DNA from: a phage
Length of the DNA: 64,000 nt
Strand: one strand, 5' to 3'
Sequence record: PZ386953.1
Below are positions 21,968 to 53,524 of the stretch, one piece after another. The position numbers and the translations under genes are program-made. The notes beneath the pieces are model-generated. The model saw nothing but the letters and a program-made list of their open reading frames with translations, was not told the DNA's origin and did no database searches. Each line of letters begins with the position of its first letter. The stretch's first letter is position 1.

Positions 21968-22636
21968 ATGGCTGTAGCTTATCCTACAATACCAATTCCA
22001 GATCTTGAAGATGCAGAAACAGTCCTGAGTGATGACTTCTTGGTTGTCAACCAGACTGATGGGACAAGAAAGGCTAAGATTGACGATGTTGTCAACGATC
22101 TTAGCATTACTAAGATAGTCTATTTCACAGAGGGTGGCTATCTTAAGAGCAAGAAGGACTTTGCTTATGACCCAGAGACTAAGCGCTACTACACGTGGAA
22201 CGGGGATTATCCTAAAATAATCCTCCCAGACTCCACTGTAGAGGGTGCTGGGGGTGTGTCTGCAAATGCATGGTCTGTTTTTGGTGAGCTTGCTGCAACT
22301 TCTTATGGCAGAATAGTTGATTACGGATCTATCGGCGGTCAGCTTGATATGGATCTTGAAGTTGCGGATACCTTTAAGGTTCGACTAACTTCAAATACCA
22401 CAATCTCTTTTGAAAATCAAACAGAAGGTCTTGAAGGGGTGGCGAGAACTATAACCGTATGCATTACTCAGACCTCTGGCGGCAACAAAGTCTATTGGCC
22501 TGATAATGTTAAATGGGCCTACGGAAGAGATCCTATCCTAACATTTACAGCTGGTGCAACAGATATTTTCAAGTTGGAAACCTACGACAACGGGTTAACT
22601 TGGTACGGGGCACTGATCATCGCAGGAGCTATCTAA
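21968..22636 (+). CDS. fibre adaptor-like protein sharing its N-terminal domain with the 1270-aa fibre
   Basis: 222 aa; N-terminal ~110 aa share a motif pattern (DYLVV-Q-D-TR-KI-DVV, F-EGG, DFAY, AW-V) with the N-terminus of ORF 25271..29083. Confidence 0.5.
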   Translation: MAVAYPTIPIPDLEDAETVLSDDFLVVNQTDGTRKAKIDDVVNDLSITKIVYFTEGGYLKSKKDFAYDPETKRYYTWNGDYPKIILPDSTVEGAGGVSANAWSVFGELAATSYGRIVDYGSIGGQLDMDLEVADTFKVRLTSNTTISFENQTEGLEGVARTITVCITQTSGGNKVYWPDNVKWAYGRDPILTFTAGATDIFKLETYDNGLTWYGALIIAGAI

Positions 22637-22637
22637 G

Positions 22638-25235: not shown

Positions 25236-25239
25236 CATA

Positions 25240-25262
25240 GGGGGCTGTTTGCCCCCTTTCAG
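25240..25262 (+). terminator. hairpin, weak terminator-like
   Basis: GGGGGC-TGTTT-GCCCCC followed by only TTTC. Confidence 0.3.
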
Positions 25263-25270
25263 GAGAAAGA

Positions 25271-29083: not shown

Positions 29084-29090
29084 CTGTTTT

Positions 29091-29118
29091 GCCCTCGCTT
29101 CGGCGGGGGCTTTTTGTT
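29091..29118 (+). terminator. intrinsic terminator
   Basis: GCCCTCGC-TTCG-GCGGGGGC hairpin followed by TTTTTGTTTG. Confidence 0.65.
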
Positions 29119-29122
29119 TGTA

Positions 29123-29151
29123 TTGCGTATTAACTCAAAATCTGGTAAAAT
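29123..29151 (+). promoter_or_regulatory. sigma70-like promoter TTGCGT-17-TAAAAT with TGG extended -10
   Basis: -35 TTGCGT 29123-29128, spacer ending TGG, -10 TAAAAT 29146-29151. Confidence 0.45.
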
Positions 29152-29182
29152 AACTATCATGATTGTTTAACCTGGAGGCACA

Positions 29183-29773
29183 ATGTTTTTATGGGAAAGG
29201 CCTAGATACCTTCCAGATATTAGATTGGAGCTGCTGGCAGATATTGTTACGTTTAAAAGTCCGTTTACAGGTAAAACGCAAAAAGTGACCTATGCCACAC
29301 CTAACTGGAAAGGCACTTTGACGGTTTCCAATATCAGCGAGTCACAGTTGCTAGAGCTTAAGAGCTTTGTTGATCAGGTGTATAAAGACGGGAACATTTT
29401 TCTTATTAAAACGTACGGTCACTCAGTTACAGCTAATGAGCCAATCGCCCTTGGGCCTACTGGTAACGACGATTTTTTGAAGACGGTTGGGTGGGAGCCA
29501 AACAGAGACATAGCTAGAGCTGGGGATAAAATATCTGTCAATGATGAATTGAAAGTGGTAACAGCTCCAGTGCGTAGCGATGGTGTTGGGTCTGCTGTTA
29601 TAAGCATATCTCCAAGACTTAGAAAACCTATTGCCGCAGGGGACACTATGAAGATAATAACTCAATCCCCTAAGGGTAGGTTTCATATCAGAGATATTTA
29701 TAAAATTAAGCAAAAAGTCGATGCTATGCAAAAAGGTGATAATATAGTTATCAACTTCTTTGAGGATTTCTAA
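29183..29773 (+). CDS. tail/baseplate structural protein
   Basis: 196-aa ORF with GGAGG SD downstream of promoter. Confidence 0.45.
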   Translation: MFLWERPRYLPDIRLELLADIVTFKSPFTGKTQKVTYATPNWKGTLTVSNISESQLLELKSFVDQVYKDGNIFLIKTYGHSVTANEPIALGPTGNDDFLKTVGWEPNRDIARAGDKISVNDELKVVTAPVRSDGVGSAVISISPRLRKPIAAGDTMKIITQSPKGRFHIRDIYKIKQKVDAMQKGDNIVINFFEDF

Positions 29774-29774
29774 G

Positions 29775-30326
29775 ATGATCAGAGCGCCATTAGATAATTT
29801 ATTTCTTGAAAAGCTGGAGCTTGATGGTGTTGAGATCTTAATTGCTGCAAAGCTGGAGCTACCGACAGGAACTGTCAGGGTGTGCTCAGGCACTGGTGTT
29901 GTAGTAATTGAGGGGCAACATTTTATAGGGATAGGTGGATCAGCAACGTTAACTGCTGTGTCTGAGAAAGATGCCACCAACTTCGGATCTGTGGTAGCGA
30001 CATTGAACGGGTTTGATCCTAAGTATGTGGGTGATCTTCTGAAGACGGAGTATTCTGGGTGTCGTGCCACGTTGTACATTACCGCTATGGAGAATGGTCT
30101 GCCTGTTACAACCAATGGCTTGTTTGACGGCCTTATAACAGATATGGCTATTCAGACGGGTGAGAATAGTGCTTTGTCCATATCCATTTCTTCCATCTTC
30201 AACAGTTGGTTAAGAGGTTTTCCTTATCGGTACACGGAGGAAAGCCACAGCTCAAGAAACGATAATGACAGATTTTTTAAATATGTGGATCAGGTGGCGA
30301 GCCGCCCGATCATTTGGGAGGTTTAA
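29775..30326 (+). CDS. tail/baseplate structural protein
   Basis: ATG 29775 with GAGGA SD right after upstream stop; track ORF starts at an in-frame TTG 29760. Confidence 0.45.
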   Translation: MIRAPLDNLFLEKLELDGVEILIAAKLELPTGTVRVCSGTGVVVIEGQHFIGIGGSATLTAVSEKDATNFGSVVATLNGFDPKYVGDLLKTEYSGCRATLYITAMENGLPVTTNGLFDGLITDMAIQTGENSALSISISSIFNSWLRGFPYRYTEESHSSRNDNDRFFKYVDQVASRPIIWEV

Positions 30327-30751
30327 TGAGCACACACCCTCGTTTAGTGGATTGGCAAGAAAGATTGTGGAAAGTGTTTGACGAAGAGGCCACCATACCT
30401 TTTGAATGGGGATTCCACGATTGCTGCACCTTTGCAGCTAAGTGTGTTGATGCCCAATACGGAACAGATTTTCTTTCTAACTTCGAAGGAACGTATAAAA
30501 CAGAGTTGGAAAGCAAAAGATGGTGCATGCTCCGTTTCAAAACCACACACCTGCCTACTATTTTTGATCTCTTTATGACTCGACTAGATACTCCTAAACA
30601 GGTTCAGCGTGGCGATATTGTTATCTTCGAAGGTCTGAACGGGCTCACCGCTGGTGTGTTCTGGAACAACCAGATTTTGGCGAAAGGTGATAAAGGGGTC
30701 TTTATGTTCGACATGAAAGATTCTATAGTTGTTGATGTCTGGAGGTATTAA
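30326..30751 (+). CDS. tail/baseplate protein with conserved Cys (FHDCC)
   Basis: ATG 30326 overlapping upstream stop with GGGAGG SD; NlpC/P60-like catalytic Cys context is only a weak by-eye resemblance. Confidence 0.4.
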   Translation: MSTHPRLVDWQERLWKVFDEEATIPFEWGFHDCCTFAAKCVDAQYGTDFLSNFEGTYKTELESKRWCMLRFKTTHLPTIFDLFMTRLDTPKQVQRGDIVIFEGLNGLTAGVFWNNQILAKGDKGVFMFDMKDSIVVDVWRY

Positions 30752-34590: not shown

Positions 34591-34595
34591 CCTTT

Positions 34596-34626
34596 AAAGC
34601 CCCGCTTCGGCGGGGTTTATTTTTAT
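34596..34626 (+). terminator. intrinsic terminator
   Basis: AAAGCCCCGC-TTCG-GCGGGGTTT hairpin followed by TTTATTTTTAT. Confidence 0.7.
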
Positions 34627-34633
34627 GCTCAGA

Positions 34634-34662
34634 TTGACTATTGTTACAAAATTTGGTAAAAT
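34634..34662 (+). promoter_or_regulatory. sigma70-like promoter TTGACT-17-TAAAAT with TGG extended -10
   Basis: -35 TTGACT 34634-34639, spacer ending TGG, -10 TAAAAT 34657-34662. Confidence 0.55.
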
Positions 34663-34695
34663 ACCTTGTAGAGATTTTCATACCGGAGGAGTGAC

Positions 34696-36186
34696 GTGGC
34701 TAAGTATGGATTGACAGAGGCTGGTTTCGTTATACCAACCCTAAATGACCTAATCGTTGAAACTAAGCAAAGCCTGATCCGTGCTTTTGGCGAAAACTTC
34801 AACGTACAGAGTAACTCCGTTGCAGATAAGCTGACCACTATCTTCAACGAGCGAGAGTATCAACTTATTCTTATGGCAGCATCTGTATACGCATCACAGA
34901 CGCTGTATGGGGCAGAAGGTATTTACCTGGACGAACTTCTTGGAAGACAAGGTATTTACCGAAGAGGCCGTTCTAAATCATCAGGTACCTGCCAGTTGAC
35001 GATCAACACAACTGTGCCGTACAATATGATTTATGATTCCAAAACTTATACGCTGGATAGTGGCAACTTTGTTCTTAGCAATGATGTGCAAGTGGCAGGG
35101 AATCTTATTGCCCACAGAATAAATGCTCCAGACCTAAGGATTGGTAAATACAACTTTCAAATTACCAACCAGACAGATGGAAGTATCAAAACAAAAAGTT
35201 TGGTTTTAACAGATAAGGCTCTGGACTCTTCTGATCTGCCAAGCTTTTACGGAGAGATTAAGCAATTCATTGTCGATAATACAACCCTGTTGAACGACGA
35301 TTTGATTCAGATCGATATGTTGACAGGAACGTTGTGGATAGGGTACAATTCGAATCTTGATCAAGTTGGACTTAATAGTAGGGTAGATTTCAGAGTATCC
35401 CCGATTGTAGGGGAAAGAACCATCACCCTGGATGTTATCGCTAACGAGGCTGGTGAGCTGTCAAGAGAGGCAGAAACCGTGACAACAATGTCACCTACTC
35501 CCAGTGGATTTATCAAGCTTACCAACCGCGAAAGATTCAACGAGGGCAGGGATGTTGAGAAAGATTCCGAGTATCGCTTAAGAGCTTCCAGCACTAAACA
35601 GTTAACATCGAAGGCTACCCGTCCTGCAATCCTTAGCGCGGTAAGCGAGGTGAAAGGTGTTGAGAAAGTGAGAGTGTTCTCCAACAACACCGATAAAACT
35701 GATGCTAAAGGTATACCTCCTTACAAGTTCCAAGTGGTTGTGTTTGGTGGTGCAACGGAGGACATTTGCCAAGCACTTTACCAAACTATAGCCTGTACGA
35801 ACAGAACTTATGGTAATATTTTCTACGATGTAACTACATCTGACGGTCAAACTGAAAGAATTTATTATTCCAAGGCAAATACCTACCGCCTGGATGTAAG
35901 AATTACCTACTCAGGTGCTGCGCTTTCCACAACCGAAAAAGATGCCATTGTAGAGGCTCTTTTGCAGGTTGTTAACGGACTGGATGTTGCAGATACGTTG
36001 TACAATATCCAATTGGTTGGTGCTGCATCTGCTGCTGTGTCGATAGGTAGATTTAATAGACTGGTAATTCAAGTTAAACCTGTGGGGGCTTCTGATGAAG
36101 CTTACACTGCAAACGATATTGTTGCAAACATGACCGAGGTGTTTGACCTCGATGAAAGTAATATAACTTTCCAACAAACTATTTAA
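34696..36186 (+). CDS. tail/baseplate structural protein
   Basis: 496-aa ORF, GTG start with GGAGGAG SD. Confidence 0.45.
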   Translation: MAKYGLTEAGFVIPTLNDLIVETKQSLIRAFGENFNVQSNSVADKLTTIFNEREYQLILMAASVYASQTLYGAEGIYLDELLGRQGIYRRGRSKSSGTCQLTINTTVPYNMIYDSKTYTLDSGNFVLSNDVQVAGNLIAHRINAPDLRIGKYNFQITNQTDGSIKTKSLVLTDKALDSSDLPSFYGEIKQFIVDNTTLLNDDLIQIDMLTGTLWIGYNSNLDQVGLNSRVDFRVSPIVGERTITLDVIANEAGELSREAETVTTMSPTPSGFIKLTNRERFNEGRDVEKDSEYRLRASSTKQLTSKATRPAILSAVSEVKGVEKVRVFSNNTDKTDAKGIPPYKFQVVVFGGATEDICQALYQTIACTNRTYGNIFYDVTTSDGQTERIYYSKANTYRLDVRITYSGAALSTTEKDAIVEALLQVVNGLDVADTLYNIQLVGAASAAVSIGRFNRLVIQVKPVGASDEAYTANDIVANMTEVFDLDESNITFQQTI

Positions 36187-36197
36187 GGCGGCGAGAT

Positions 36198-36884
36198 ATG
36201 GCAGAGATTAAGTCGGATGTTAACCACATCCACACTCTGCCAGATTTTGTTCAGGGAGGTCTTGACTACCTGCCTGGAGATTTTCTGGCTGAGAAGGTTA
36301 ATTTAGTCACATTCTTAACCGTGTACCTTAAAAGGTTGGAGGATGTTGATAAGATGCTGGTAGGTTTGGCTGAAGGAAGATTGCTTAATAATGCCAGCGG
36401 AAGATACCTTGACGAAGTTGGTAATCAACTCGGTATTCTTAGGAATGGACTTTCAGATGCTGATTTTCGTGCCACACTAATTATTCAGCAGGCCGCAGCA
36501 TCAAGGGGCGGGACTCGCGAAGATGTCATCTCCACCTTGCGACAATTGTTCGGAAGAAACAATTTCGATACGTGGAAAGGAGACAACTTCAGGTTTGACA
36601 TAAATATTAGAAAAACTTGCTTTGACATATTGCAGTCTATTGATCAGATCTTAGACATGCTACCACTGCCTTGTCATTTGCGTCTTACAGAATCGCAAGG
36701 GCAAGCTTTTGGTTTTGAAGGTGACTCTACAGCTCTTGGCTTCGGATCAGTGTGGGAAGAAAACCAATTCGGAGTTGGTGGGCTGGCTACTTTGCTGTAT
36801 GTTCCTGACGTAAGACCTGATTGGGACACCACAACCATTTATTGTGAAAGTATTACAGTAAACGCAACTAGACAGGAGGGTTAA
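36198..36884 (+). CDS. tail/baseplate structural protein
   Basis: 228-aa ORF with AAGG SD. Confidence 0.45.
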   Translation: MAEIKSDVNHIHTLPDFVQGGLDYLPGDFLAEKVNLVTFLTVYLKRLEDVDKMLVGLAEGRLLNNASGRYLDEVGNQLGILRNGLSDADFRATLIIQQAAASRGGTREDVISTLRQLFGRNNFDTWKGDNFRFDINIRKTCFDILQSIDQILDMLPLPCHLRLTESQGQAFGFEGDSTALGFGSVWEENQFGVGGLATLLYVPDVRPDWDTTTIYCESITVNATRQEG

Positions 36885-38956: not shown

Positions 38957-38968
38957 TCAGGAGATAAA

Positions 38969-40009
38969 ATGTCAAAACCTAGTTTTCCATTAGAGATTTG
39001 GGCAGAGGAGGATCAGGTTCTGCCTAACACCCACAGACAGAACAGGCTACGCCCGATTGATGATTTGTGGAGAAAAGGTTGGGATCTTGGTCAAAAGCCC
39101 TCATGTGAAGAACTTAACTATATTTTCAATATGCTCGGAACTTGGGCAAAATATATTGCTGACGAGCAGATCCCCGCTCAAGAAGGCCGTTATCTGGTAC
39201 GCGATAATAACTTGAGTGATCTTTTGAACATTCCTGTTGCCCGTAGAAACCTTGGGATTATTACTAAGGAAGAGGCAGACGCCAGATATGTAAAAGTTAC
39301 AGGTGATACAATGACAGGCCCACTGGGTTTGCAACGTATCAACTTTAAAGCTGCCGAGACAGATAAGGCTTGGATAGAGACAACTATTGGCCCAGATAAG
39401 ACAACTCTCGACTTTGGGTTAAGTGATAATACCGGGTCGTTTGATGATGGTGGTACATCTACAGTAGATGCGTTCCGTTGGAGATTCCAGCCAACTCAGC
39501 CGGATATTAATCCAGAGTTCACTTTGATGTACCTTAACGCGATCACGGCTAACCGTGCGCTGTTGAAAGTGGTAGGCAATGTTGAAGTTGTCGATAACAT
39601 GAGGTGCAATAACCTTACTATCAGCAATACAGCAACATTCACCAACTGTAATGTGGCTAGTCAGTTGACGGCTGGGTCAGTATATGTTAATGGTGGTGCA
39701 AGTTGTGACAGCATGGTTGTAAGAAGCCAGCACTGTGTTGTCGGTAACAGAAATGTGGTGCGCTCTGTGAATGGGGTGACGGCTAACGGTAACGGTGATG
39801 TAACAATCACTATCCCGCAGACAGGTGTGCAAGACATCAGAATCGGTGCAAGACTTGTTGACGGCGTTTCTGAATCTCCAATTCGCAACGGCTACGTTGT
39901 CACAGGCTGGCATTTCGGTGACAAAAAAGAGATGCGTGGTTCAACCTACTGGGCAGGACCTTTACAAAAACTTGTAAATGGTCAATGGATCACTGTTAAT
40001 TATGCATAG
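38969..40009 (+). CDS. receptor-binding tail fibre, paralogue A
   Basis: 346 aa; paralogous over its length to ORF 41024..42067 (shared N-terminus M-x-KP..PL.IWA, central FRWRFQP...LNAITANRA, C-terminal QKLVNGQWIT). Confidence 0.55.
   Translation: MSKPSFPLEIWAEEDQVLPNTHRQNRLRPIDDLWRKGWDLGQKPSCEELNYIFNMLGTWAKYIADEQIPAQEGRYLVRDNNLSDLLNIPVARRNLGIITKEEADARYVKVTGDTMTGPLGLQRINFKAAETDKAWIETTIGPDKTTLDFGLSDNTGSFDDGGTSTVDAFRWRFQPTQPDINPEFTLMYLNAITANRALLKVVGNVEVVDNMRCNNLTISNTATFTNCNVASQLTAGSVYVNGGASCDSMVVRSQHCVVGNRNVVRSVNGVTANGNGDVTITIPQTGVQDIRIGARLVDGVSESPIRNGYVVTGWHFGDKKEMRGSTYWAGPLQKLVNGQWITVNYA
39965..39994 (+). repeat. 30-nt segment identical to 42022..42051 (3' end of fibre paralogue A)
   Basis: CAAAAACTTGTAAATGGTCAATGGATCACT read identically at both loci while flanking DNA is diverged. 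Confidence 0.8.
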
Positions 40010-40023
40010 ATCGGAGGACTAGC

Positions 40024-40608
40024 ATGAAAATACTTCAAGAGTTTAAACTTTACCAACCGGGATCTGGCGAATACCACCCTAACAAGGGAACCAAGGAGCT
40101 GACCCCTCAAGAGGTTGAGGATTACACCGCATACACTGGGTATTTTTTACGTAATGATGATGGCGATTGGTATGTGCAGTCACGAACATTACGACAAGAA
40201 AATCCGGGTTGTATCTTCCTACTTGTTGACGAGAAGGGAATTCTTAAGACATCTACAGAAGAACCTGATGCCCTATGGCCTGCTCCAGGTCTTCGTGTGG
40301 TTATCGCCAAAAAAGAAGAGGTACCAGAAAACATTATGCTTCACCACGACGCTTTGCGTTTAGTTGGTGATGAATTTGTCACAGACAATGAATTCTTTGT
40401 TCAACAGGCAGAGGGTGTCATAGAGACAGAACTTGCTTGGGCTACTGCTAGAATTGGTGCCTATCAAGACATGATTGACCTTGAATATGATCTTACTGAT
40501 GACCAGAAACGTAACATCAGAGATTTGAAAATGTACAGGGTAAAACTTCTTGAAATAGATACATCTAAAGCCCCTGACATTTTCTTCCCGGAGCGACCTA
40601 CCCTCTAA
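40024..40608 (+). CDS. hypothetical fibre-associated protein (possible assembly factor)
   Basis: 194-aa acidic ORF with GGAGG SD directly after fibre paralogue A. Confidence 0.45.
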   Translation: MKILQEFKLYQPGSGEYHPNKGTKELTPQEVEDYTAYTGYFLRNDDGDWYVQSRTLRQENPGCIFLLVDEKGILKTSTEEPDALWPAPGLRVVIAKKEEVPENIMLHHDALRLVGDEFVTDNEFFVQQAEGVIETELAWATARIGAYQDMIDLEYDLTDDQKRNIRDLKMYRVKLLEIDTSKAPDIFFPERPTL

Positions 40609-40619
40609 GAGGAGGTGTT

Positions 40620-40934
40620 GTGGAGTTGGATTTGGCGGCATTGTACGGTATCTGCATGGGTACCGTTGTCCCGATCTGTGTATGGGCTTTCAACCAGTGG
40701 CACACCAAATGGAAAGGCATTTCCAAGAGGTTGGATGAACTGGAGAAAGACCTCATCTTAGTGAAAAACAGTATGGTTACAAAAGATAAACTTGATTCTA
40801 TTATCGAGACCCGGTTAAGCAAGCTAGAGGCCGATATTAACGACCTTAAGCAGGATGTTAGGACAGATGTCTCCGGCATCAGAGCTGATGTACAAAAGAT
40901 TTTGCACATGCTTGTAGAGCATAGTAAAAGGTAA
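40620..40934 (+). CDS. small membrane protein (N-terminal TM helix + coiled coil)
   Basis: 104 aa; hydrophobic LAALYGICMGTVVPICVWAF then charged helical region; start codon uncertain (GTG 40620 sits too close to SD). Confidence 0.4.
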   Translation: MELDLAALYGICMGTVVPICVWAFNQWHTKWKGISKRLDELEKDLILVKNSMVTKDKLDSIIETRLSKLEADINDLKQDVRTDVSGIRADVQKILHMLVEHSKR

Positions 40935-40939
40935 ACAAA

Positions 40940-40963
40940 GGTCAGGACGGAAAGGACTCCGTT
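40940..40963 (+). terminator. hairpin, weak terminator-like
   Basis: GGACGGA-AAGGAC-TCCGTTC stem-loop after ORF 40620..40934, without a clear T tract before the promoter. Confidence 0.3.
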
Positions 40964-40964
40964 C

Positions 40965-40993
40965 TTGCATTTTGTTCACTAAAGTGTTAAAAT
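40965..40993 (+). promoter_or_regulatory. sigma70-like promoter TTGCAT-17-TAAAAT
   Basis: -35 TTGCAT 40965-40970, 17-nt spacer, -10 TAAAAT 40988-40993, upstream of fibre paralogue B. Confidence 0.5.
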
Positions 40994-41023
40994 AGTCCTA
41001 AGGAATTTTCTCAGGAGAACGTG

Positions 41024-42067
41024 ATGACTAAACCAGTTATCCCTCTTGATATTTGGGCCAATCAGGATGTTGTGCTTGAAAATACGGGAGAATTGAATAA
41101 GTCCCAACCAAAAAAAGAAGAGAGACTGAAAGGTTGGGATATGACACAAAGAGTGGCATGTGAAGTTGTTAACTTTGAACTTCACATGCTTTCTGCGTGG
41201 TTAAAGCATTTAACAGAAGATGTTGTCCCAGGATGGGATAATAGATTCTTAAGGGTCACTAATAATCTGGCAGACGTTCCAGACAAAGCTGCTGCACGTC
41301 AAGTTCTCAATGTATACTCGCCTGAAGAAATGGATGACCTTTATGTTGACAAGGCTGGAGACACAATGATCCAGACTCAAACTTTAGGTCTTCAAAGAAT
41401 CGAGTTTGCATCCGCGTCAACAGACAATGCGGCGATATACACCACCATAACTTCAGACAAGACGATGATGGATTTCTGGATTATGGACAACATCGGTGGT
41501 GCTGACGGCACAGACCTTGATGATCCCTCTCACCAAATAGACGGTTTCCGTTGGAGATTTCAACCTTCTGGTGGGCAGCCTGTGTTTTCAGCTATGAAGC
41601 TCAATGCTATAACTGCCAACCGTGCAAGACTGGCTATCCAAGGAAATCTTGAATGCAACGACGCAAAAAGTTCCTCTGCAAATGCCAATGCAGCTACGAT
41701 ACCAAGAGCCACTGTTAATGGACAACAATCCTGTGGAAGCGCTCAAATAGGTGGAAGAGTTGATTGTAACGATGAAACCGTCAGGGGCCAATATGCAACA
41801 GTTGGTGGAAGAAACGTGGTCCGCAGGGTAAATGGTAACAGCGCAGACGGTAGTGGTAACCTTACTATCCCTATGCCCAGCAGAGGGGTTGATGATGTGA
41901 GGATAGCAAACCGTTTCAAAACCACCTACAGAGAGTCAAGAGTCTACCCTGGACATGTGATGTGCTCGGGTAACTACGCTTATAAACACCCTTATCAAGG
42001 TGATTACTGGACAGGTGCTATCCAAAAACTTGTAAATGGTCAATGGATCACTATATCTTATGCTTAA
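41024..42067 (+). CDS. receptor-binding tail fibre, paralogue B
   Basis: ATG 41024 with AGGAGA SD; N-terminus MTKPVIPLDIWAN parallels paralogue A; own promoter. Confidence 0.55.
   Translation: MTKPVIPLDIWANQDVVLENTGELNKSQPKKEERLKGWDMTQRVACEVVNFELHMLSAWLKHLTEDVVPGWDNRFLRVTNNLADVPDKAAARQVLNVYSPEEMDDLYVDKAGDTMIQTQTLGLQRIEFASASTDNAAIYTTITSDKTMMDFWIMDNIGGADGTDLDDPSHQIDGFRWRFQPSGGQPVFSAMKLNAITANRARLAIQGNLECNDAKSSSANANAATIPRATVNGQQSCGSAQIGGRVDCNDETVRGQYATVGGRNVVRRVNGNSADGSGNLTIPMPSRGVDDVRIANRFKTTYRESRVYPGHVMCSGNYAYKHPYQGDYWTGAIQKLVNGQWITISYA
42022..42051 (+). repeat. 30-nt segment identical to 39965..39994 (3' end of fibre paralogue B)
   Basis: Same 30-mer as in paralogue A, encoding QKLVNGQWIT. 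Confidence 0.8.
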
Positions 42068-42078
42068 AAAGAGGGTAA

Positions 42079-42345
42079 ATGAAACTAACTCAGTTTTTAT
42101 GGGGACTGGTTGCGGCATCTGATGACCCTACGAAAGTGTCCCAATCTAAGCTATGGTCAAACATAGGTATGGCGGTGATGACTGGGGTGTTTATTCATAT
42201 GGGGTATAATGATACGCTTCCTGAATGGTATGCGTGGATATATGCGCCTTCGGTAGCTTGCCCCCAGCTTATTAGCAAATTCATCTCGCTCCGGTGGGGT
42301 TGCCAGCACCCTGACCACGTTAAAAACGAAGAGCAAAAAGCTTAA
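42079..42345 (+). CDS. small multi-pass membrane protein (holin-like or exclusion-like)
   Basis: 88 aa with 2-3 hydrophobic segments and charged C-terminus; AGAGGG SD; directly after fibre paralogue B. Confidence 0.45.
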   Translation: MKLTQFLWGLVAASDDPTKVSQSKLWSNIGMAVMTGVFIHMGYNDTLPEWYAWIYAPSVACPQLISKFISLRWGCQHPDHVKNEEQKA

Positions 42346-42354
42346 GGAGAGATC

Positions 42355-44100
42355 ATGGCGCAAGACATGACAAGCTTTGAGCAGGCGGTAGATCAAGTAA
42401 TTGTTGATTCTGAACGTTTGCACCTGATTGTCAACGGTAACGCTGTGGATGAGGTTGTCGTAGAGGATGGGACCACCATCCCTACGGTACGAAAAGCCAT
42501 GCTTGACACCCTTTATTTTAAAACGCCGCCGATCCCTTGGGCGTATGGTGCATCCACAACAGTTTTTAACCAGCTATATGAGTTTAAAGGGGACACAGGG
42601 CCCCAGTGGTGGTACGCTCCCGCAGCATCAAAATCTAACCCGGTTAGAATGCCAGCAGATCCTTCACAATCCCCAAACTGGAGATTATATACTGACTCTG
42701 CAGTAATGGCAAAATACTATGCAAAACTTAACAGCCCAAGGTTCGAAGGTGACCCGCGAGTACCTACACCTCCAATGGACGATAAGTCAGAGTCTATAGC
42801 AAACACAGAGTTTGTTGTTGACTATGTTGATAGTATATTTAAAGCCATGGAGGGGATGAAAGTTACTGTAGGATCTTTGGTGGTGAAAGGTCTTACAGAA
42901 CTCGCTAACACCATAGTTGGTGGCACCCTTACCTTACATGGACCTGTTAATGGGGCAGATTCTACTGCACGCTTTAGGAATCTAATCCTCACGGCAAATA
43001 CTTCTACACTTACTTTTGCGTGGAGCGATCCTAAGCATGCAGACTGGAGAAGTACAGAGCTGCAACCTCATGAAGTGTCCACCCACAGGGTTATAGCTGA
43101 CACTATAACTTCTGGGAAACCAGTGGCTAATAATAACGATGTACATTTTGATGGTCTGGGTAATAACTTTTTTGACTACGTGTACATTCGTGGTAATGCC
43201 ATGAAGGCAGCAACCGAACCGACATTGCAGGTCGATGGGACCACCAGGGTTAAGAACCTTGAGGTGACAGGTACCGTTACAGGGATAACCTACTCTGTTG
43301 ATGGCACCATGATCTACCCTAGCTATATTGAAAGCACGGGCGATGCATTGATAAACGGCGATTTGGAGGTTGGCGGGTCTGTAGTTATCCGAGGTACAGC
43401 CTCTATCCAAAATATAGCTCTGAATACTTTAAGAGTCAATGAGCGTGCAACTTTTGAAGGAGAAGGGCTTACAGCCAATAAAGGTACAATTACTGAGCTG
43501 ACCACCACCACTTTAACTGCAACAACTGCAAACTCTGAAAACTGCAACATTACCAGAAACTTGCAGGTAAATGGAGATGTTAGTTTAAACGCCGCAGGGA
43601 CTGGCACCACCTACCTTCACAATCTTGAAATATCCGGCACAGTGACCGGATGGCTGCCAGACTTCTCTAATGTCAACTTTGTCTGTAATGGTATTAACTC
43701 CAGTGGTAAGATAACCACCTCTCAAGAAATTGAGGCTGGTAAAACCATCACTGCCCCTACTTTCCACGCAGGGAAGGTAGATTTCGATTTAGAGGAGGTT
43801 GACGCGTCCAGTGGGACATGGACACCTAACGGGCAGGCCAGTATGTATGTTGTCCACGCTAAAGGGGATTTTACAATAGGGCAGTGGCCTGGGACATCAG
43901 CGGAAGATAAACCTTATCCATTTACTGCGGTTATCTATGTAATTCAGGATGCTGTAGGTCACAACGTGACTTTGCACGATAAGTATGCTATCCTGTCGGC
44001 AACACCTGTTATTAACAACAAGGCTAACAGTGTTACCTTGCTGCAATTAACGTATTGTGGTGTTGGTGATATCGTAGATGTAGTAATTGCACAACGTTAA
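42355..44100 (+). CDS. tail fibre protein
   Basis: 581-aa Thr/Gly/Asn-rich fibre-like protein with AAGGAG SD. Confidence 0.5.
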   Translation: MAQDMTSFEQAVDQVIVDSERLHLIVNGNAVDEVVVEDGTTIPTVRKAMLDTLYFKTPPIPWAYGASTTVFNQLYEFKGDTGPQWWYAPAASKSNPVRMPADPSQSPNWRLYTDSAVMAKYYAKLNSPRFEGDPRVPTPPMDDKSESIANTEFVVDYVDSIFKAMEGMKVTVGSLVVKGLTELANTIVGGTLTLHGPVNGADSTARFRNLILTANTSTLTFAWSDPKHADWRSTELQPHEVSTHRVIADTITSGKPVANNNDVHFDGLGNNFFDYVYIRGNAMKAATEPTLQVDGTTRVKNLEVTGTVTGITYSVDGTMIYPSYIESTGDALINGDLEVGGSVVIRGTASIQNIALNTLRVNERATFEGEGLTANKGTITELTTTTLTATTANSENCNITRNLQVNGDVSLNAAGTGTTYLHNLEISGTVTGWLPDFSNVNFVCNGINSSGKITTSQEIEAGKTITAPTFHAGKVDFDLEEVDASSGTWTPNGQASMYVVHAKGDFTIGQWPGTSAEDKPYPFTAVIYVIQDAVGHNVTLHDKYAILSATPVINNKANSVTLLQLTYCGVGDIVDVVIAQR

Positions 44101-44108
44101 TATATCTA

Positions 44109-44134
44109 ACCGCTCCTGACGGGGCGGTTTTCTT
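44109..44134 (+). terminator. intrinsic terminator
   Basis: CCGCTCC-TGAC-GGGGCGG hairpin followed by TTTTCTT. Confidence 0.55.
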
Positions 44135-44148
44135 ATCTGGAGAACACA

Positions 44149-47100
44149 ATGCTTCCAATCCCTTTGCTAAAACTTGGTCGTCATTTCCTCGATAAGAGGG
44201 GTGGAATTAAGGAACTTGCTGTTCTGTCATACCCAATAGACAACAGTGATGGTACAAGCAATACAGTATCCTATGTAAATAGCTTAGCTATACTTTTTGA
44301 TGATGGTCAGCTTAATATTACTGGTTATAATAGGTTCGGAGAGTGTCGGACTGGAGATCTTGATACAATAAACTATCCTAATGAGGCAGCTTGGAACGTA
44401 GACCATGTTTGGAGAGCTGACCGTGCATTTGTAATCCGCACATTCGATAATAAATTTTTCTATATTGGTTGCACAGCTGGTCTTATCGGATCGGAGGCAG
44501 CAGGTGGAAACGATGTTTGTGTCAGAGAGTGGACACCTTTGCCGGAACAGATCGTAACAGGGTTGCATTTGGACACCCATCCTGAGAGACTTGTTGAAGT
44601 AATGGGTGGCGTAAACAATACAGTGTGGGTAATTGCTGCACCAGAGGCTGATGGTATGCTTCACCTGTACGGCTCTGGCAATAATACTTACGGCTCTCTT
44701 CATGTTGACAAAAATCAACACGCTACTCCAGTTAAGATTGGTGAAACATCTGAAAGTCCAGAGACAGGTCCTTGGAAAAACCCAAGAATTAATTGTGAAG
44801 TTCATGACAACTCGGTTATTTTTGGTGGTCCTAACGGATTCTGGATTGCAGGTTACGATTTCTTAAGAAATAACAGCAAAAACACACTAATTTATCCAGC
44901 CGAGCATGCGACTCTTGACCAGTTTAAAGGCATCTCGGTGGGCGAGACATGGAAAGGGTTTATGTGTGGACCTAATGGTGCAATTATAGCCACAGAAAGG
45001 ATGCACAAACCTGATGACCAACAGCTTGTTAATGTGTTTTATGGTCAGGATGTTTGGGGTGACGACACGTGGAGAAGCCTTAACATCACCTATACCCATG
45101 AAGTAATTATGGCTCGCGGGTACGGGACTAGTGGAATTTTCTTCAATAATGGTACAAAACAGTACCGTGGTTTCTCCAGAAACCTGTGTAACGATATTGG
45201 TGCTCAATCTGCTAATAATAATCCTAGGGCCAATTTTATTCATTACAGAGCGCTGGCAACAGCTAAGTTTGTTGAACAGACAGAGCCAGTAAGCTGGACA
45301 GAAAGCGTTTATTTTCAAGGGATCCACAGGGAAGGTTTCTTAGGCACATTCTGTGTGGTAAATGGAAAGCTTTGGTGGTCAGGTATCCCAAGGGGCAGTT
45401 TTTCAGGCTCTAATAACCTGTTCGGCGGCAGACTTAACAGCCAAGGGTTCACAGAGATTCCTGAGAATTGGTATAAAAATGTTCCGGTAGATAGCTGGAG
45501 TATCGAAGACATCTTTGATGTCAATGGTGTAAGCAGTGTTAGCAATATATACATTGGCGACACTGTCAAAATGAAGTTGAAACCTCAACCGGAGGGTGCT
45601 ACGTTCATTATTGACAAGATTGAGCTCGTGAACGCTGCAGGTACTGTTGTTACAGATGCAAACTATCAGTTCTCTACTAGCTGGAACCATGGCGGTGCTA
45701 ACGAGGTTGTGGTTACCCAGCATAACCGTAACATCAACAGACGCGGTCTGTATTCTGTCAAGATCACCTATCATGATAAACATGGCGCTGGAAGAACCCA
45801 CACCACACGAAACTTAAACTGGAACATTGTAGTTCCTGCATATCCGTCAGACGGCAAATGGCACACTGTTGGCAGGAAGAAACAGTTCCATGTAAACGAT
45901 ACTGTATACTTTGGGCTTAACGGCTCTCAGCCTGCTCCAGAAAGCGATACAGCATATATGGTTAGGCTTCACAGGCAAGATGCCGGATCTACCACGTATG
46001 ATGTGACCCAGGAGATCTACGACCAGAGACGCAGTATCTATGACAATCTTGTGAAAACACAAGCCTTGTGGGAGTTCAACCCTAACGGCAAAGGCGGGAA
46101 GATGCTGCAGGTTAACGAGCAGAACGGAACATCGTTAACAGTGCACGAGCATGCTGATCCATGGCCTGATCCTGGTAAGCCTAACCCAGGTGCTCGCACA
46201 CTGAAAGTTGTTAGCCACAACGCAGGGTATTTCGGGATACGTTGGGAAGCTACAGTAAAATATGTTGATGGAACAACAAACAATATAGGTATTACTCTGG
46301 GTGGTACCAGTGAAGATAGTTCTCTGAAAATTGCCTACACCCCTAGAGGCATCTCTATTGACAATATGGATATAGTTCGTAACGGTTACGGTGATGTAAA
46401 CATCAAAGTTACCCTCGGTGAACATCTTGGTGGAGAAAGGATCATCATGTATGCCTTTGACCATGATCCTCGCACCAATGGAACCTATGCAAATCAGGCG
46501 TGGAGTTACCTGATAAATGCACCTGAGCCAAATACTAAAGAGTTTTATTATGGTATGAAGCGCGATGTGTGCAAGAAAACAGGAACACATGACTGGATCG
46601 CTATCTGCGTTAAAGATGAGCGGACAGCTTGGGACGAGCCTGTTAACAGATGGTTCATAGGAATCCCAACCAGAAGTGATAAATATGTCACAGAATATAT
46701 TGTGTGCATGGGCGGCACCAACCTGAACCTGTGTTGGAACGAAGATGCAAACAAATATTCCGATTATGACTATATGAGAGATATCTCTTGTAATCAGTGG
46801 TTTAACCAGACTACAGGTTACCCTCCGCGTCAGGCGAGAGTAAACCCTGCAATCTTCACAGATACGCAGGTTTTCTTGACAAAACAGGCCAACGAGGTTC
46901 AGACCTTCAAGAACAAATACGACCCTAACAAGTGGTTTTATAACTGTTATGGCGCATTTTTCTGGGGTCCGGGGGAACTACCTAACGGGGGATCTTGCTT
47001 CGAGGCTGCAACCTATGGCAGCGACTATATTATGGGGCAAGTCAAGAAATACAAAATGATCCCTGGTCCTGAAACCCTGGGTAATGCTGTTGACCCGTAT

Positions 47101-49785
47101 ATAGTCTTCTCGTCTGTCCATGCAAATATGAACGGAGAGAAGTATCCGTTCGACGTTCCGGTAGCCAATGGATACAGACGTGTCGTGATGATCATTAAGT
47201 GCGACCTGATAGGTAAGCAAGTTCCTGCTGAAAACGGAACATCAACACACCCGTTTGAAATTGCTCTGCACTACCAATTTGCAGATTCTCCTTTTGCAGG
47301 GGATAAGAGAATATCTGATACAGATGCACAGCGTTGTAAGAAGGTATTGTTAGGTGCTGGATGGTGGTGGTATGAGTTTGACTTGACAGACAAACTCACA
47401 GACAACACAAAAACTCTTACAGGTATTCGTCTGGACCTTGGTGAAAACATGCACAAAAGTGTCTGCGATGGCACCTATGGTGATCCTACAGTACACTTGA
47501 AATATGTTTCTCTTGAGCATCCGGAGGAAACTGTTATTGGCCCCAAACTGAGACTGTTTGGCAGCTGGATTGCTAAAGACAGAGTAGGAATGGGTAAAAA
47601 GGTAAGAGGATTCCTGATGGATGCGGGGACAGAAGACATGCTGGTTAATGCAGTGTGGCCTACTCTAGAGGGAACCGACTACAACAATGCTGCAAGATCT
47701 GTCAACTGGTTTAACATCCACAGAGCCATGTGGACTACCAACTGCTATTTGTGGAGAGAGCTTAACGATAATGCCTTCGGCTTCAGCAATGGCAGAAGGA
47801 TGGCTATCATTTGCTGGACAACACTGCAACGTTGCTATGACCACAACTATGAAATAGGTGGTAGAGCGTGGAAAGACACCAGGGATAGAATTGTGTACAA
47901 CTTTGCAGACGACAACGGTGGTGGAGCGTATAACTTCGGCACAAGCAGACTTATCCACTTAAACGGATCCTCGGCCTACAAGAAAGAAGGTTACTCTGGA
48001 TCCATGATTGAGTGGGGTCTGGTAAAAGATGCTCGCGTATTGATGGGCCAACAACTTGCTGCTGCAATAGGTCCTAACGCAGTGCAATCTGTTAAACCAG
48101 CGTGGTTCGATATTCCATTGTGGTCATCCGGCACACCAGGGACTGCTGCAATCAATCCTACCACGGGAGATCTGGAAATCTCTTGGGAAGACTTGAAGCA
48201 GGTTGGGGGCTGGGATAAGACAGGGTATCAGGTGCAGTGGTGGAAATCTGACGGATCGTTAGCAGCTGATGAGTTTGTTAAGGACAATTTCTACACCATG
48301 TCCTCTGCAAAAGCACAGGAATTGTTCGGTCAGGCAACTCCGTCAACGATCACCATGTCCATGTGCTGTAAAGACAACAGGACTGGAGCTTTGGGGCCAA
48401 GGGTTGCTAAGGTTTTCTCAGGTATTAAATGGAATCCCTCTGTTCAAAGTGTTTCATGGAAGCAAATAGGTGATAACAAGCTGCTAGTTACCCCCGCCTG
48501 TCAGTTCAACGCAACTCTTAACGTTGATCCTGCTGCTGCGGCAAACTCAGCTAAAGCTTCTGACTTCTCTGTGTCTAACACTGCTATGGCAGATGTGAGG
48601 AAGATTGACACACTGAACGCCAGAATTACCTGTAAAAACACTTATGGCACATTCCAAATCATCAACAACTTCACAGATGCTGATTCTAAGGTAGTGAGGA
48701 CAGCAAGCCAGACTCTGAGTTTAGGAACTCTGGCCTATGCGGCCCTGATCACCGAACAGTCGGCAACACTCCAAGGAGGTGGTGTAGGCAAGTCCATTAC
48801 AACACCTGTGTGGAAGCCAAATGAGTGGGTTGTGTTTGATTTGACTGTGGACTTCTCCAGCGATAATAACTGGACATGGGTAAGGAATTGCTTGTCACAA
48901 CTGATGGGTGGTCCAAGCTCCGTTAGTGATAGCTACGACTCCACTGACCCGAGTGTGTTTCAGGTGGGTAAAACTCACCCGGAGACTGGAGCAACGTTGC
49001 CTGACAGGAAGTATGCTTTGGTTTGCATCTCTTACGGGAAGGCAGATGTCACCTTCTCAGGGACACACACTTATAACGGAACCTACAACTTCTCAAGGAA
49101 GTATAGTCTCAAAGCAGGGAACATTATAGACGAGGTTGGTGTGCTGTATAATCCGGGCAACGGCATAGGGATTGTGGGTGGTAAACTGCAGATGCAGGAA
49201 CCTTCTATTACCCCTTCCAACGTATCCGGGATTAGAAAGACTTGGGAAAGTAGTAATACCAACATTGCAACAGTGGATGCCACCACAGGACTGGTAACAT
49301 TTAAAGCTACTGGGAATGTCACCATAAAGTTTGTAGTTACAGATGATGCAGGGCGCAAAACGTCTTCAACATCTTTTACTGTCAAACAGATGGCACCACA
49401 GTGGAGAATGTGGATAGGTACAGCAACAAACGGGGCATACCCTAATCCGGCAGGTACTTCTGGTATGAAGACTTTCTCTACAAGCAAACCGATGGAGTAC
49501 GGCAGCGGTCCTAAGGTAGGGCAGATGGTGTACTTTGGTGCGTATATTCCTGAAATTATAGGGCTTCCGAGAAGTCAGCTTCAGTTGCTGTTTGGGGCTG
49601 GTGTTGACGATCTTGCCACTTTCGGGTATAGCGACAACATCGAGGCTGCAAGGAGTTCAGGATGGGTAGGGTTCAGAATGGAGTCTGGAAAGGAAGGCAG
49701 GATTCTAGGGACAGCCTCTATAGGTGTTATGTTCCCTGGTGACCAGCAGTATCGTCTAGAAGCCTACGCAACCTTTTCTCGTTAA
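44149..49785 (+). CDS. giant tail fibre/adhesin-like protein with C-terminal Ig-like (Big_2-like) domain
   Basis: 1878-aa ORF with GGAG SD; segment SNTNIATVDATTGLVTFKATGNVTIKFVVTDDAGRKTSSTSFTV resembles bacterial Ig-like group 2 domains. Confidence 0.6.
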   Translation: MLPIPLLKLGRHFLDKRGGIKELAVLSYPIDNSDGTSNTVSYVNSLAILFDDGQLNITGYNRFGECRTGDLDTINYPNEAAWNVDHVWRADRAFVIRTFDNKFFYIGCTAGLIGSEAAGGNDVCVREWTPLPEQIVTGLHLDTHPERLVEVMGGVNNTVWVIAAPEADGMLHLYGSGNNTYGSLHVDKNQHATPVKIGETSESPETGPWKNPRINCEVHDNSVIFGGPNGFWIAGYDFLRNNSKNTLIYPAEHATLDQFKGISVGETWKGFMCGPNGAIIATERMHKPDDQQLVNVFYGQDVWGDDTWRSLNITYTHEVIMARGYGTSGIFFNNGTKQYRGFSRNLCNDIGAQSANNNPRANFIHYRALATAKFVEQTEPVSWTESVYFQGIHREGFLGTFCVVNGKLWWSGIPRGSFSGSNNLFGGRLNSQGFTEIPENWYKNVPVDSWSIEDIFDVNGVSSVSNIYIGDTVKMKLKPQPEGATFIIDKIELVNAAGTVVTDANYQFSTSWNHGGANEVVVTQHNRNINRRGLYSVKITYHDKHGAGRTHTTRNLNWNIVVPAYPSDGKWHTVGRKKQFHVNDTVYFGLNGSQPAPESDTAYMVRLHRQDAGSTTYDVTQEIYDQRRSIYDNLVKTQALWEFNPNGKGGKMLQVNEQNGTSLTVHEHADPWPDPGKPNPGARTLKVVSHNAGYFGIRWEATVKYVDGTTNNIGITLGGTSEDSSLKIAYTPRGISIDNMDIVRNGYGDVNIKVTLGEHLGGERIIMYAFDHDPRTNGTYANQAWSYLINAPEPNTKEFYYGMKRDVCKKTGTHDWIAICVKDERTAWDEPVNRWFIGIPTRSDKYVTEYIVCMGGTNLNLCWNEDANKYSDYDYMRDISCNQWFNQTTGYPPRQARVNPAIFTDTQVFLTKQANEVQTFKNKYDPNKWFYNCYGAFFWGPGELPNGGSCFEAATYGSDYIMGQVKKYKMIPGPETLGNAVDPYIVFSSVHANMNGEKYPFDVPVANGYRRVVMIIKCDLIGKQVPAENGTSTHPFEIALHYQFADSPFAGDKRISDTDAQRCKKVLLGAGWWWYEFDLTDKLTDNTKTLTGIRLDLGENMHKSVCDGTYGDPTVHLKYVSLEHPEETVIGPKLRLFGSWIAKDRVGMGKKVRGFLMDAGTEDMLVNAVWPTLEGTDYNNAARSVNWFNIHRAMWTTNCYLWRELNDNAFGFSNGRRMAIICWTTLQRCYDHNYEIGGRAWKDTRDRIVYNFADDNGGGAYNFGTSRLIHLNGSSAYKKEGYSGSMIEWGLVKDARVLMGQQLAAAIGPNAVQSVKPAWFDIPLWSSGTPGTAAINPTTGDLEISWEDLKQVGGWDKTGYQVQWWKSDGSLAADEFVKDNFYTMSSAKAQELFGQATPSTITMSMCCKDNRTGALGPRVAKVFSGIKWNPSVQSVSWKQIGDNKLLVTPACQFNATLNVDPAAAANSAKASDFSVSNTAMADVRKIDTLNARITCKNTYGTFQIINNFTDADSKVVRTASQTLSLGTLAYAALITEQSATLQGGGVGKSITTPVWKPNEWVVFDLTVDFSSDNNWTWVRNCLSQLMGGPSSVSDSYDSTDPSVFQVGKTHPETGATLPDRKYALVCISYGKADVTFSGTHTYNGTYNFSRKYSLKAGNIIDEVGVLYNPGNGIGIVGGKLQMQEPSITPSNVSGIRKTWESSNTNIATVDATTGLVTFKATGNVTIKFVVTDDAGRKTSSTSFTVKQMAPQWRMWIGTATNGAYPNPAGTSGMKTFSTSKPMEYGSGPKVGQMVYFGAYIPEIIGLPRSQLQLLFGAGVDDLATFGYSDNIEAARSSGWVGFRMESGKEGRILGTASIGVMFPGDQQYRLEAYATFSR

Positions 49786-49795
49786 CAAGGGGGTA

Positions 49796-49831
49796 AATAA
49801 AAAGGGGCCAAACGGCCCCTTTCTTTTTATA
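49796..49831. terminator. bidirectional intrinsic terminator between convergent operons
   Basis: AGGGGCC-AAAC-GGCCCCT hairpin flanked by an A tract upstream and a T tract downstream. Confidence 0.7.
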
Positions 49832-49832
49832 G

Positions 49833-50033
49833 TTAGTAATACTCCCAACATGCCCCATCTTCAGACGGCTTGACGCGCTTACCTTTATGGTCAACATAGG
49901 TATAGCCACAACCTTCACAAATAACAGGTGCTGCATAGCCTTCCTTCCACTGATCCTCAGTGATCAGACCTTCCAAATCTTTGCAGTCAAAGCCAAACAA
50001 CTCTTCAGAGCAATCTTTACAAAAATCAGCCAT
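49833..50033 (-). CDS. small zinc-ribbon-like protein
   Basis: 66 aa with two CxxC pairs (CKDC ... CEGC). Confidence 0.5.
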   Translation of the reverse strand: MADFCKDCSEELFGFDCKDLEGLITEDQWKEGYAAPVICEGCGYTYVDHKGKRVKPSEDGACWEYY

Positions 50034-50036
50034 TTC

Positions 50037-51207: not shown

Positions 51208-51212
51208 GGCTC

Positions 51213-53523: not shown

Positions 53524-53524
53524 A

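Follow-up and report, generated by a model that had tools for sequence, protein, structure and literature searches.

How many receptors does a phage address when gene after gene of its baseplate region encodes a large fibre-like protein, and which of these proteins act as fibres at all? The question is raised by positions 21968-49785 (the interval) of a 64,000-nucleotide stretch of phage DNA, sequence record PZ386953.1 (the window), which was analyzed on the + strand from a listing of its open reading frames (ORFs) with translations. A first-pass annotation had seen here an unusually large multi-fibre adsorption apparatus of the phi92/rV5 type. The interval is best read as the host-recognition (baseplate periphery) locus of a Vequintavirus myovirus, which would comprise five modules and mediate adsorption in three layers, and we put the probability of this reading at roughly 85%. 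The genes and their homologies, the paralogy, the transcription signals and the way in which variation is distributed are matters of direct observation, and it is with these that the argument begins.

Lineage and layout of the locus

A megablast search with positions 21968-46000 matches 131 phage records, and in 94 of these the match spans 80% or more of the query. The best matches are rV5, Murica, Bas59 (EduardKellenberger) and Bas54 (MaxBurger), with 93-96% identity over 97-100% of the query, and the flanks (1-22000 and 46000-64000) share 97-99% identity with genomes of the genus Vequintavirus. According to the annotation tables of Bas59, rV5 and Bas54 the interval is syntenic, gene for gene, with rV5 gp43-gp27, and the loci of rV5, Murica, Bas59 and Bas54 agree with it in gene content, order, strand and intergenic signals. 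These comparisons identify the host-recognition locus of an rV5-like coliphage of the genus Vequintavirus, so that the rV5-type lineage guessed by the first-pass annotation is correct (~95% DNA identity together with the synteny). The size of the apparatus, by contrast, is not unusual but normal within the genus, and the architecture is already known from genomic descriptions (2013, 2021), low-resolution cryo-electron microscopy (cryo-EM; 2025) and transposon mapping (2025) in near-identical phages, for which recognition of a broad range of hosts is also on record.

Seventeen proteins, 16 of the interval and the flanking gp44-like protein, were compared with their counterparts in rV5, Bas59 and Bas54, and 15 of them are 97-100% identical. 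Allelic variation is limited to the three largest fibre genes: the gp41-like protein is 84% identical to rV5 and Bas54 and 96% to Bas59, and the gp27-like protein is 89.5-93.6% identical to the three phages; for the gp37-like protein one allele is common to the window and all three comparators. Within the gp41-like protein, residues 1-500 and the C-terminal chaperone are conserved among relatives and residues 500-1200 are variable, with the identity to rV5 and Bas54 dropping to 44% at residues 1001-1100, which by alignment is the usual signature of a receptor-binding tip. The allele of the window is nearest to that of Murica, its best DNA match (98%). The gp27-like protein, whose gene is the most divergent of the locus, is a mosaic with allelic blocks and two C-terminal allele types, and the allele in the window is without a full-length DNA match above 91.8%. 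Neither difference from the relatives goes beyond the allelic variation known in the genus. The same locus is matched by 18 GenBank records of the MG0656xx series, which are named “Campylobacter phage” with C. jejuni given as host; three of them (D#, D1 and C7) are 94-95% identical over 98-100% of the locus. These records are probably coliphage contaminants or mislabelled entries.

The interval holds 17 genes in one uninterrupted block on the + strand (ORF table), with products, in order, of 222, 865, 1270, 196, 188/183, 145/141, 1279, 496, 228, 690, 346, 194, 104, 348, 88, 581 and 1878 amino acids (aa), the 88-aa one having been found by translation. GC skew is positive across the locus and reverses only beyond 50 kilobases (kb), which fits a single direction of transcription. 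ORFs of 580-1880 aa are far above chance expectation, and all have annotated orthologues at 84-100% identity. The sizes given in the first-pass annotation for the six large proteins (865, 1270, 1279, 690, 581 and 1878 aa) agree exactly with the ORF table, and its two ~346-aa paralogues are indeed paralogous (346 and 348 aa, 43% identity over the full length, E=4e-95). Its estimate of about 28 kb of fibre- or spike-like coding sequence stands as regards the large same-strand block, but receptor-binding-type (fibre) proteins total only 7479 aa or 22.4 kb, and ~4.9 kb go to the wedge pair, one tail-fibre chaperone, the three small proteins of the tail-tip cassette and two other small proteins. 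Likewise, after domain annotation the fibre- or spike-like label suits most of the proteins, but two of them, of 865 and 690 aa, resemble enzymes or sheath subunits and not classical fibres or spikes.

GC-rich hairpins with T-runs lie directly 3' of the stop codons of the gp41-, gp37-, gp31-, gp28- and gp27-like genes, and three of the five have TGGTAAAATA (29143, 34654) or TGTTAAAATA (40985) within ~50 nucleotides (nt) downstream. At 34654 the motif is part of a promoter with TTGACT, a 17-nt spacer and TAAAAT. Exact TGGTAAAATA occurs in four copies in the window, all on the + strand, against an estimated ~0.1 expected by chance on both strands, and the more general TGnTAAAATA at six sites, again all on the + strand (6945, 11468, 14989, 29143, 34654 and 40985), of which the last three are intergenic in the fibre locus and the other three lie between or at the edges of upstream ORFs. 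That all six lie on one strand suggests that the structural operon is served throughout by one class of late promoters with an extended -10. The TGGTAAAATA motif equals the late-gene motif reported for rV5 (TggTAaAAtA), and the intergenic signal sequences are nearly invariant in rV5, Bas59 and Bas54. A generic sigma-70 scan gave 35 sites where 36 are expected from shuffled sequence, an absence of excess for which promoters were credited only at intergenic sites that coincide with the published rV5 motif. Promoter/terminator pairs of their own, which the first-pass annotation had proposed for several of the genes, are thus present at three junctions (29091-29152, 34597-34663 and 40944-40994). 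The hairpin that closes the locus corresponds to one annotated in rV5 as a bidirectional terminator.

On these signals the locus would be transcribed late, from one strand, in roughly five modules (Table 1). Module A would consist of the gp43-, gp42- and gp41-like genes, a Tail_spike_N pair with the gene of a glycosidase-like protein between them, and module B of a siphovirus-type tail-tip cassette of four genes, the last of which encodes a lambda-J-like protein. Module C would join the gp36- and gp35-like wedge, the gp34-like TIM-barrel protein, the first short tail fibre, a Tfa-type chaperone and gp31, and module D the second short tail fibre, the small gp29-like membrane protein and the proximal long fibre (gp28-like), while module E would be the 1878-aa protein with an immunoglobulin (Ig) domain alone.

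Table 1. Genes and transcription signals of the host-recognition locus (window coordinates).
Feature	Position	Strand	Assignment or context
gp44-like baseplate protein, just outside the interval	21242..21958	+	homologue of the phi92 gp139 sheath initiator
gp43-like small fibre protein, 222 aa	21968..22636	+	Tail_spike_N PF18668 (E=2e-10); phrog_7760 “tail fiber protein”
gp42-like tail protein, 865 aa	22638..25235	+	phi92 gp141 homologue
gp41-like long fibre, 1270 aa	25271..29083	+	PF18668 N-terminal anchor; PF13884 C-terminal
Terminator hairpin, then promoter-like TGGTAAAATA	29091-29110; 29143-29152	+	after gp41-like stop
gp40-, gp39- and gp38-like, 196/183/141 aa	29183..30751	+	phrog_1302 “distal tail protein”; phrog_2048 tail protein; DUF6950 (PF22262)
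gp37-like lambda-J-type central-fibre/tip protein, 1279 aa	30751..34590	+	PF24489, PF09327
Terminator hairpin, then sigma-70-like extended -10 promoter	34597-34618; whole 34597-34663	+	after gp37-like stop
gp36-like (496 aa) and gp35-like (228 aa) wedge pair	34696..36884	+	gp36-like: Baseplate_J PF04865; phi92 gp145/gp146 homologues (32% and 29%)
gp34-like, 690 aa	36884..38956	+	Calx-beta, NCTSP_N and N4 gp64-type TIM barrel
gp33-like short tail fibre (346 aa), gp32-like chaperone (194 aa), gp31-like small protein (104 aa)	38969..40934	+	
Terminator-like hairpin, then TGTTAAAATA	40944-40965; 40985-40994	+	after gp31-like stop
gp30-like short tail fibre 2 (348 aa) and gp29-like (88 aa)	41021..42345	+	gp29 orthologue annotated as membrane protein
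gp28-like baseplate-proximal long fibre, 581 aa	42355..44100	+	phiTE long tail fibre homologue
Terminator-like hairpin	44108-44129	+	between gp28-like and gp27-like genes
gp27-like giant Ig-domain protein, 1878 aa	44149..49785	+	annotated as lateral tail fibre with intimin-like domain
Strong hairpin	49801-49822		after gp27-like stop; convergent end of late operon

A proposed three-layer model of adsorption

Where these proteins sit on the virion, what they bind and in which order they act can be proposed from homology and from published genetic work on phages with 95-99% identity. Three sets of lateral tail fibres are characteristic of the Vequintavirinae, which use the lipopolysaccharide (LPS) core as terminal receptor (Maffei et al., 2021). 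Their primary glycan, first thought to be the enterobacterial common antigen, is now taken to be the N4 glycan receptor (NGR) and is attributed to the gp34/gp142-type protein. In the first layer of the proposed model the gp34-like protein would engage or process this conserved receptor, which would allow passage through the O-antigen layer. Its TIM barrel (PF23845, E=4e-80) and NCTSP_N domain (PF23844, E=7e-13) are accompanied by a match to the structure of N4 gp64 (9lc0, E=2e-24), the minor subunit of the non-contractile sheath of N4, and by 42% identity to phi92 gp142. A separate gp65-like gene was not found in the locus; only a stretch of 59 aa (residues 285-343) of the gp34-like protein matches the gp65-type family phrog_15324. 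A binder or deacetylase of the NGR is the probable role suggested by the homologies.

In the second layer, Mu-S-like short tail fibres docked on the gp36-like wedge would bind the LPS outer core as terminal receptor, and their binding would trigger contraction, as proposed for the rearrangement of fibre III and the baseplate periphery in phi92. The gp33- and gp30-like proteins, which flank the Tfa-type chaperone, both belong to phrog_4465; the N-terminal 108 aa of the gp33-like protein match the short tail fibre of phiTE (9cuy_c, E=1e-19) and its residues 286-343 match Mu gpS (5yvq, E=1.7e-6), while the gp32-like protein carries the Caudo_TAP tail fibre assembly chaperone domain (PF02413, E=1e-11). 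In the relatives gp30 starts at the ATG at 41024. Paralogous short fibres around a chaperone have likewise been described for the Vequintavirinae sensu stricto (Maffei et al., 2021). Homology makes the gp36- and gp35-like wedge the platform that carries the fibres, docking sites on the wedge being shown by the phi92 and phiTE structures. In the phi92 structure (2026) the large wedge protein bears both the Mu-like fibre III and fibre I on its C-terminal domain, and the rearrangement of fibre III is linked to sheath triggering. The gp44-like protein, 100% identical to Bas59 and rV5 and 25% identical (E=6e-14) to phi92 gp139, probably forms part of the same docking platform; its role as sheath initiator is given by the phi92 and phiTE structures.

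The third layer would be made up of co-expressed accessory modules that are needed only on particular hosts, namely the gp41-, gp37- and gp27-like proteins together with the gp42-like one. The N-terminal ~100 aa of the gp43-like protein are 38% identical to the N-terminus of the gp41-like protein, and its C-terminal half is homologous to phi92 gp140 (41%, E=2e-25). Judging from relatives, the gp43- and gp41-like proteins would dock via their shared anchor domain, possibly on the gp42-like protein, and the 1270-aa fibre would fold with the aid of its C-terminal Peptidase_S74 domain (PF13884, E=1.9e-16, residues 1149-1200), a predicted intramolecular chaperone of the endosialidase type. The gp42-like protein is modelled as an (alpha/alpha)6 barrel with beta-sandwich inserts and looks like a glycosidase-like fold of the six-hairpin glycoside hydrolase type. 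Residues 8-325 of the gp28-like protein match the long tail fibre of phiTE (9cuy_g, E=1.6e-76), whose N-terminal bundle docks on wedge 2A and on the C-terminal helix of the sheath initiator, so that by analogy the gp28-like protein would use its N-terminal bundle to dock on the wedge and on the gp44-like sheath initiator, and it may in turn hold the gp27-like protein. The N-terminus of the gp28-like protein also matches that of phi92 gp150 and its C-terminus that of phi92 gp151. The N-terminus of the colanidase gp150 (11864-12205 of the phi92 sequence) is 44% identical to the start of the gp28-like protein (window 42355-42700), a likeness which may help to assign “fibre II” of phi92. The J-like cassette would, again by comparison with relatives, form a further accessory fibre.

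Transposon mapping by HIDEN-SEQ in Bas54 showed that bas54_0026, 0027, 0028, 0031 and 0041 tolerate insertions on K-12 (bioRxiv 10.1101/2025.11.20.689424), and these genes map to the orthologues of the 865-, 1270-, 196-, 1279- and 1878-aa proteins. In the same study different lateral fibre genes were conditionally essential on different clinical isolates. As to the virion, the mass spectrometry table of rV5 lists gp41 with eight peptides, gp37 and gp34 with four each and gp27 with three (PMC3606486), which, taken with the other published findings on relatives, goes against most of these proteins being absent from the particle as far as published data reach, although the table is too shallow to settle the matter. 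The text of that paper lists gp30, 32, 33, 36, 42, 43 and 45 as detected by mass spectrometry, while its Table S5 holds 19 proteins only, with just gp34, gp41, gp37 and gp27 from the locus, several of them with non-tryptic peptides of low score.

Several points weigh against the three-layer reading. The rV5 table covers only its 19 proteins, and the gp34 and gp27 peptides are few and mostly non-tryptic; the cryo-EM densities of Bas49 and Bas54 (RBPseg) place only three fibre types near the baseplate, compared with nine annotated fibre proteins; the gp42-like fold comes from a seven-sequence alignment with a predicted local distance difference test score (pLDDT) of 72 and weak Foldseek matches; and the receptors are carried over from relatives rather than measured on this phage, the assignment of gp34-type proteins to the NGR resting on genetics and a short homology, not on binding assays. 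A competing reading is an apparatus that is functionally far smaller, effectively monovalent per host (NGR plus LPS core), in which several “fibres” are enzymes or parts of composite fibres and eight large proteins do not mean eight receptors. Maffei et al. (2021) argued for a locus that is mostly invariant and for phages that could be “effectively monovalent on E. coli K-12.” The three densities point the same way, as do the glycosidase-like gp42-like protein, the resemblance of the gp34-like protein to a sheath subunit, the one anchor domain that the gp43- and gp41-like proteins have in common and the contact of the gp28-like head with a further unassigned density. However, the dependence of different clinical isolates on different fibre genes and the allelic variation in the distal parts of the gp41- and gp27-like proteins are at odds with so reduced an apparatus, which we consider a serious competitor that falls somewhat short of even odds.

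For the gp27-like protein a place elsewhere on the virion has to be weighed, as an Ig-domain decoration or adhesin of, for example, the head or neck (Hoc-type) instead of a tail fibre. Its sole firm domain is Big_2 (residues 1682-1733), the only one that Pfam recognizes; relaxed Pfam scans of its segments gave just weak RCC1-like and fn3 hints, which were not used. The C-terminal 285 aa match phrog_215, a “structural protein with Ig domain” of the head and packaging category, the protein is dispensable on K-12, and the cryo-EM of Bas49 and Bas54 assigned no density to it, all of which would suit a decoration. On the other hand, the gene is the last of the fibre operon and its mosaic allelic variation is typical of receptor-binding proteins. 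Furthermore, the full-length protein is confined to Vequintavirus, and its N-terminal 207 aa are shared, at 39% identity, with a Phapecoctavirus “tail protein” (phrog_11922), so that a decoration appears unlikely and a lateral fibre remains the preferred assignment.

The tail-tip cassette and the source of versatility

The least ordinary feature of the locus is module B (29183-34590), by homology and gene order a complete four-gene siphovirus tail-tip cassette with its own promoter and terminator within a myovirus baseplate operon. The gp37-like protein carries Ig_J_second (PF24489) and Phage_Tail_Tip (PF09327) above the Pfam cut-off, matches the structure of lambda J (8iyk, E=5e-28) and is 54% identical over 731 aa to the J protein of Seurat. 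Indeed, the whole cassette is collinear with Seurat gp16-gp19 (positions 7001-11700 of the Seurat sequence), with 32, 40, 44 and 54% identity, the same order and similar sizes. Among the tblastn matches listed for the gp40-like protein, those outside Vequintavirus are almost all siphoviruses at less than 60% identity, including Seuratvirus, Nonagvirus and Serratia and Vibrio phages. Unlike the siphovirus module, the cassette does not directly follow the tape measure gene (15829-18165), but starts 11 kb downstream of it; that gene is followed by tube initiator, hub and spike genes of the myovirus type. No Pfam or PDB sequence match was found for the gp40-like protein, and the PDB search with the gp39-like protein likewise gave nothing meaningful. 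The AlphaFold2 model of the gp40-like protein reaches a pLDDT of only 45.7 from a shallow alignment of almost only near-identical sequences and does not confirm the Dit fold.

Capture of the cassette by a Vequintavirus ancestor is evident from this homology and collinearity. That its products assemble as an autonomous, hub-like Dit ring with a J trimer on the baseplate periphery, and so form a “lateral fibre,” is a tentative proposal that we regard as possible but doubtful. If true, such a peripheral Dit/J complex would be a mode of fibre attachment unseen in any solved baseplate. Only this structural reading would be new, since in public annotations the genes already go by “distal tail protein” and “central tail fiber J,” and the question of how a siphovirus tail tip is mounted on a contractile baseplate concerns the whole genus rather than the window specifically. 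The cassette could also be a horizontally acquired passenger without a role in adsorption, given that the orthologues of the gp40- and gp37-like genes tolerate insertions in Bas54 on K-12, that the phi92 baseplate locus is without a homologue and that the cassette has its own promoter and terminator. Against this, the proteins of the cassette are conserved at 98-100% identity in rV5, Bas59 and Bas54, and about 119 phage records contain the gp40-like protein at 90% identity or more. Moreover, rV5 gp37 peptides were detected in virions, gp37-like proteins show strong allelic variation across the genus, and lateral fibre genes are conditionally essential on other hosts, which together make a passenger very improbable. 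The central part of the gp41-like fibre (residues 169-660) is in turn ~31% identical to the side tail fibre gp21 of Seurat. This likeness may be taken as a second sign of the exchange of fibre modules between Vequintavirus and siphoviruses of the Queuovirinae.

A genetic switch of host range, whether an invertible segment of the kind known from Mu or P1 or a diversity-generating retroelement directed at a fibre tip, can practically be dismissed. Two Mu-S-like short tail fibre paralogues do flank a Tfa-type chaperone, but both lie on the same strand with their own start codons and without inverted repeats flanking the pair, the 21-51 kb region holds only seven short inverted repeats (20-26 nt, 80-90% complementary, widely spaced) and neither long template/variable direct repeats nor tandem repeats, and the orthologous loci of rV5 and Bas59 are without invertase or reverse-transcriptase annotation. 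Otherwise, the repeat search of 21-51 kb returned short matches at chance level, the 3' ends that the two short tail fibre genes have kept in common, and a pair of similar terminators. Versatility would thus come from co-encoded fibres and not from a genetic switch. The broad or switchable host range predicted in the first-pass annotation is accordingly borne out in so far as co-encoded fibres are used alternatively and are conditionally essential in Bas54, but not as regards an invertible segment or other genetic switch. The locus determines which strains of Escherichia coli are recognized by a common class of phages of therapeutic and biocontrol use, and with a Murica-type gp41 allele and a gp27 allele that has no close match in the phage collection, the host range of this phage may differ from that of rV5.

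Outside the fibre locus, the sole match of an Rfam scan is a tRNA cluster at 1785-2597. It contains a tRNA-like gene of 97-99 nt (2254-2352), for which ARAGORN gives a four-base anticodon (atcc) and Rfam a score of just 35.5 bits; from its sequence the gene might encode a pseudo-tRNA, a tRNA with an intron or one that resembles a frameshift suppressor.

Comparison with known systems

In Seurat (Queuovirinae) the homologues of the cassette lie immediately downstream of the tape measure gene and form the tip of a tail that does not contract, whereas in the window they are found in a myovirus with its own hub and spike, and at least the gp40 and gp37 orthologues are dispensable on K-12. Phage N4 and the Vequintavirus group both depend on the NGR, and the gp34-like TIM barrel is homologous to N4 gp64, with a short stretch homologous to gp65; in N4, however, gp64 and gp65 form a heterodimer around a podovirus tail, while the window encodes one 690-aa fusion beside a myovirus wedge. 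As in the S fibre and U/Tfa systems of the Mu/P2 type, an S-like C-terminus is encoded next to a Caudo_TAP chaperone, but the invertible segment that switches fibre tips is missing. For phiTE (PDB 9CUY/9MJN) it is the docking parts that correspond, in the N-terminal 320 aa of the gp28-like and the N-terminal 108 aa of the gp33-like protein, whereas the distal parts of the fibres differ, phiTE being flagellotropic with a simpler set of fibres. The anchor of the gp43- and gp41-like proteins is common to the tailspikes of CBA120, in which Tail_spike_N is also the N-terminal module.

The closest likeness outside the genus is to phi92 (Justusliebigvirus), the “nanosized Swiss army knife.” In the phi92 baseplate locus, ten of the proteins that the interval encodes, and the gp44-like protein, find homologues, whole or partial, at 23-60% identity, with tblastn matches to gp139, 140, 141, 142, 145, 146, 147 and 148. 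The likeness covers the sheath initiator, the wedge pair, the gp141-, gp142- and gp140-type proteins, the Mu-like short fibre with its chaperone and the N-terminal anchor modules of gp150 and gp151. By contrast, the endosialidase gp143 has no match in the window and the colanidase gp150 matches only with its N-terminal ~110 aa, so that the window lacks the catalytic domains of both enzymes, while phi92 lacks the Dit-to-J cassette and the 1878-aa Ig protein and has only one short tail fibre. Moreover, phi92 is classified in a different subfamily, the Stephanstirmvirinae. Of the phi92/rV5-type multi-receptor architecture named in the first-pass annotation, the rV5 part and the phi92 baseplate homologues therefore hold, but the phage, judged by these matches, is not a phi92-like one, even though its apparatus works in a similar way, with multiple co-expressed sets of fibres in both.

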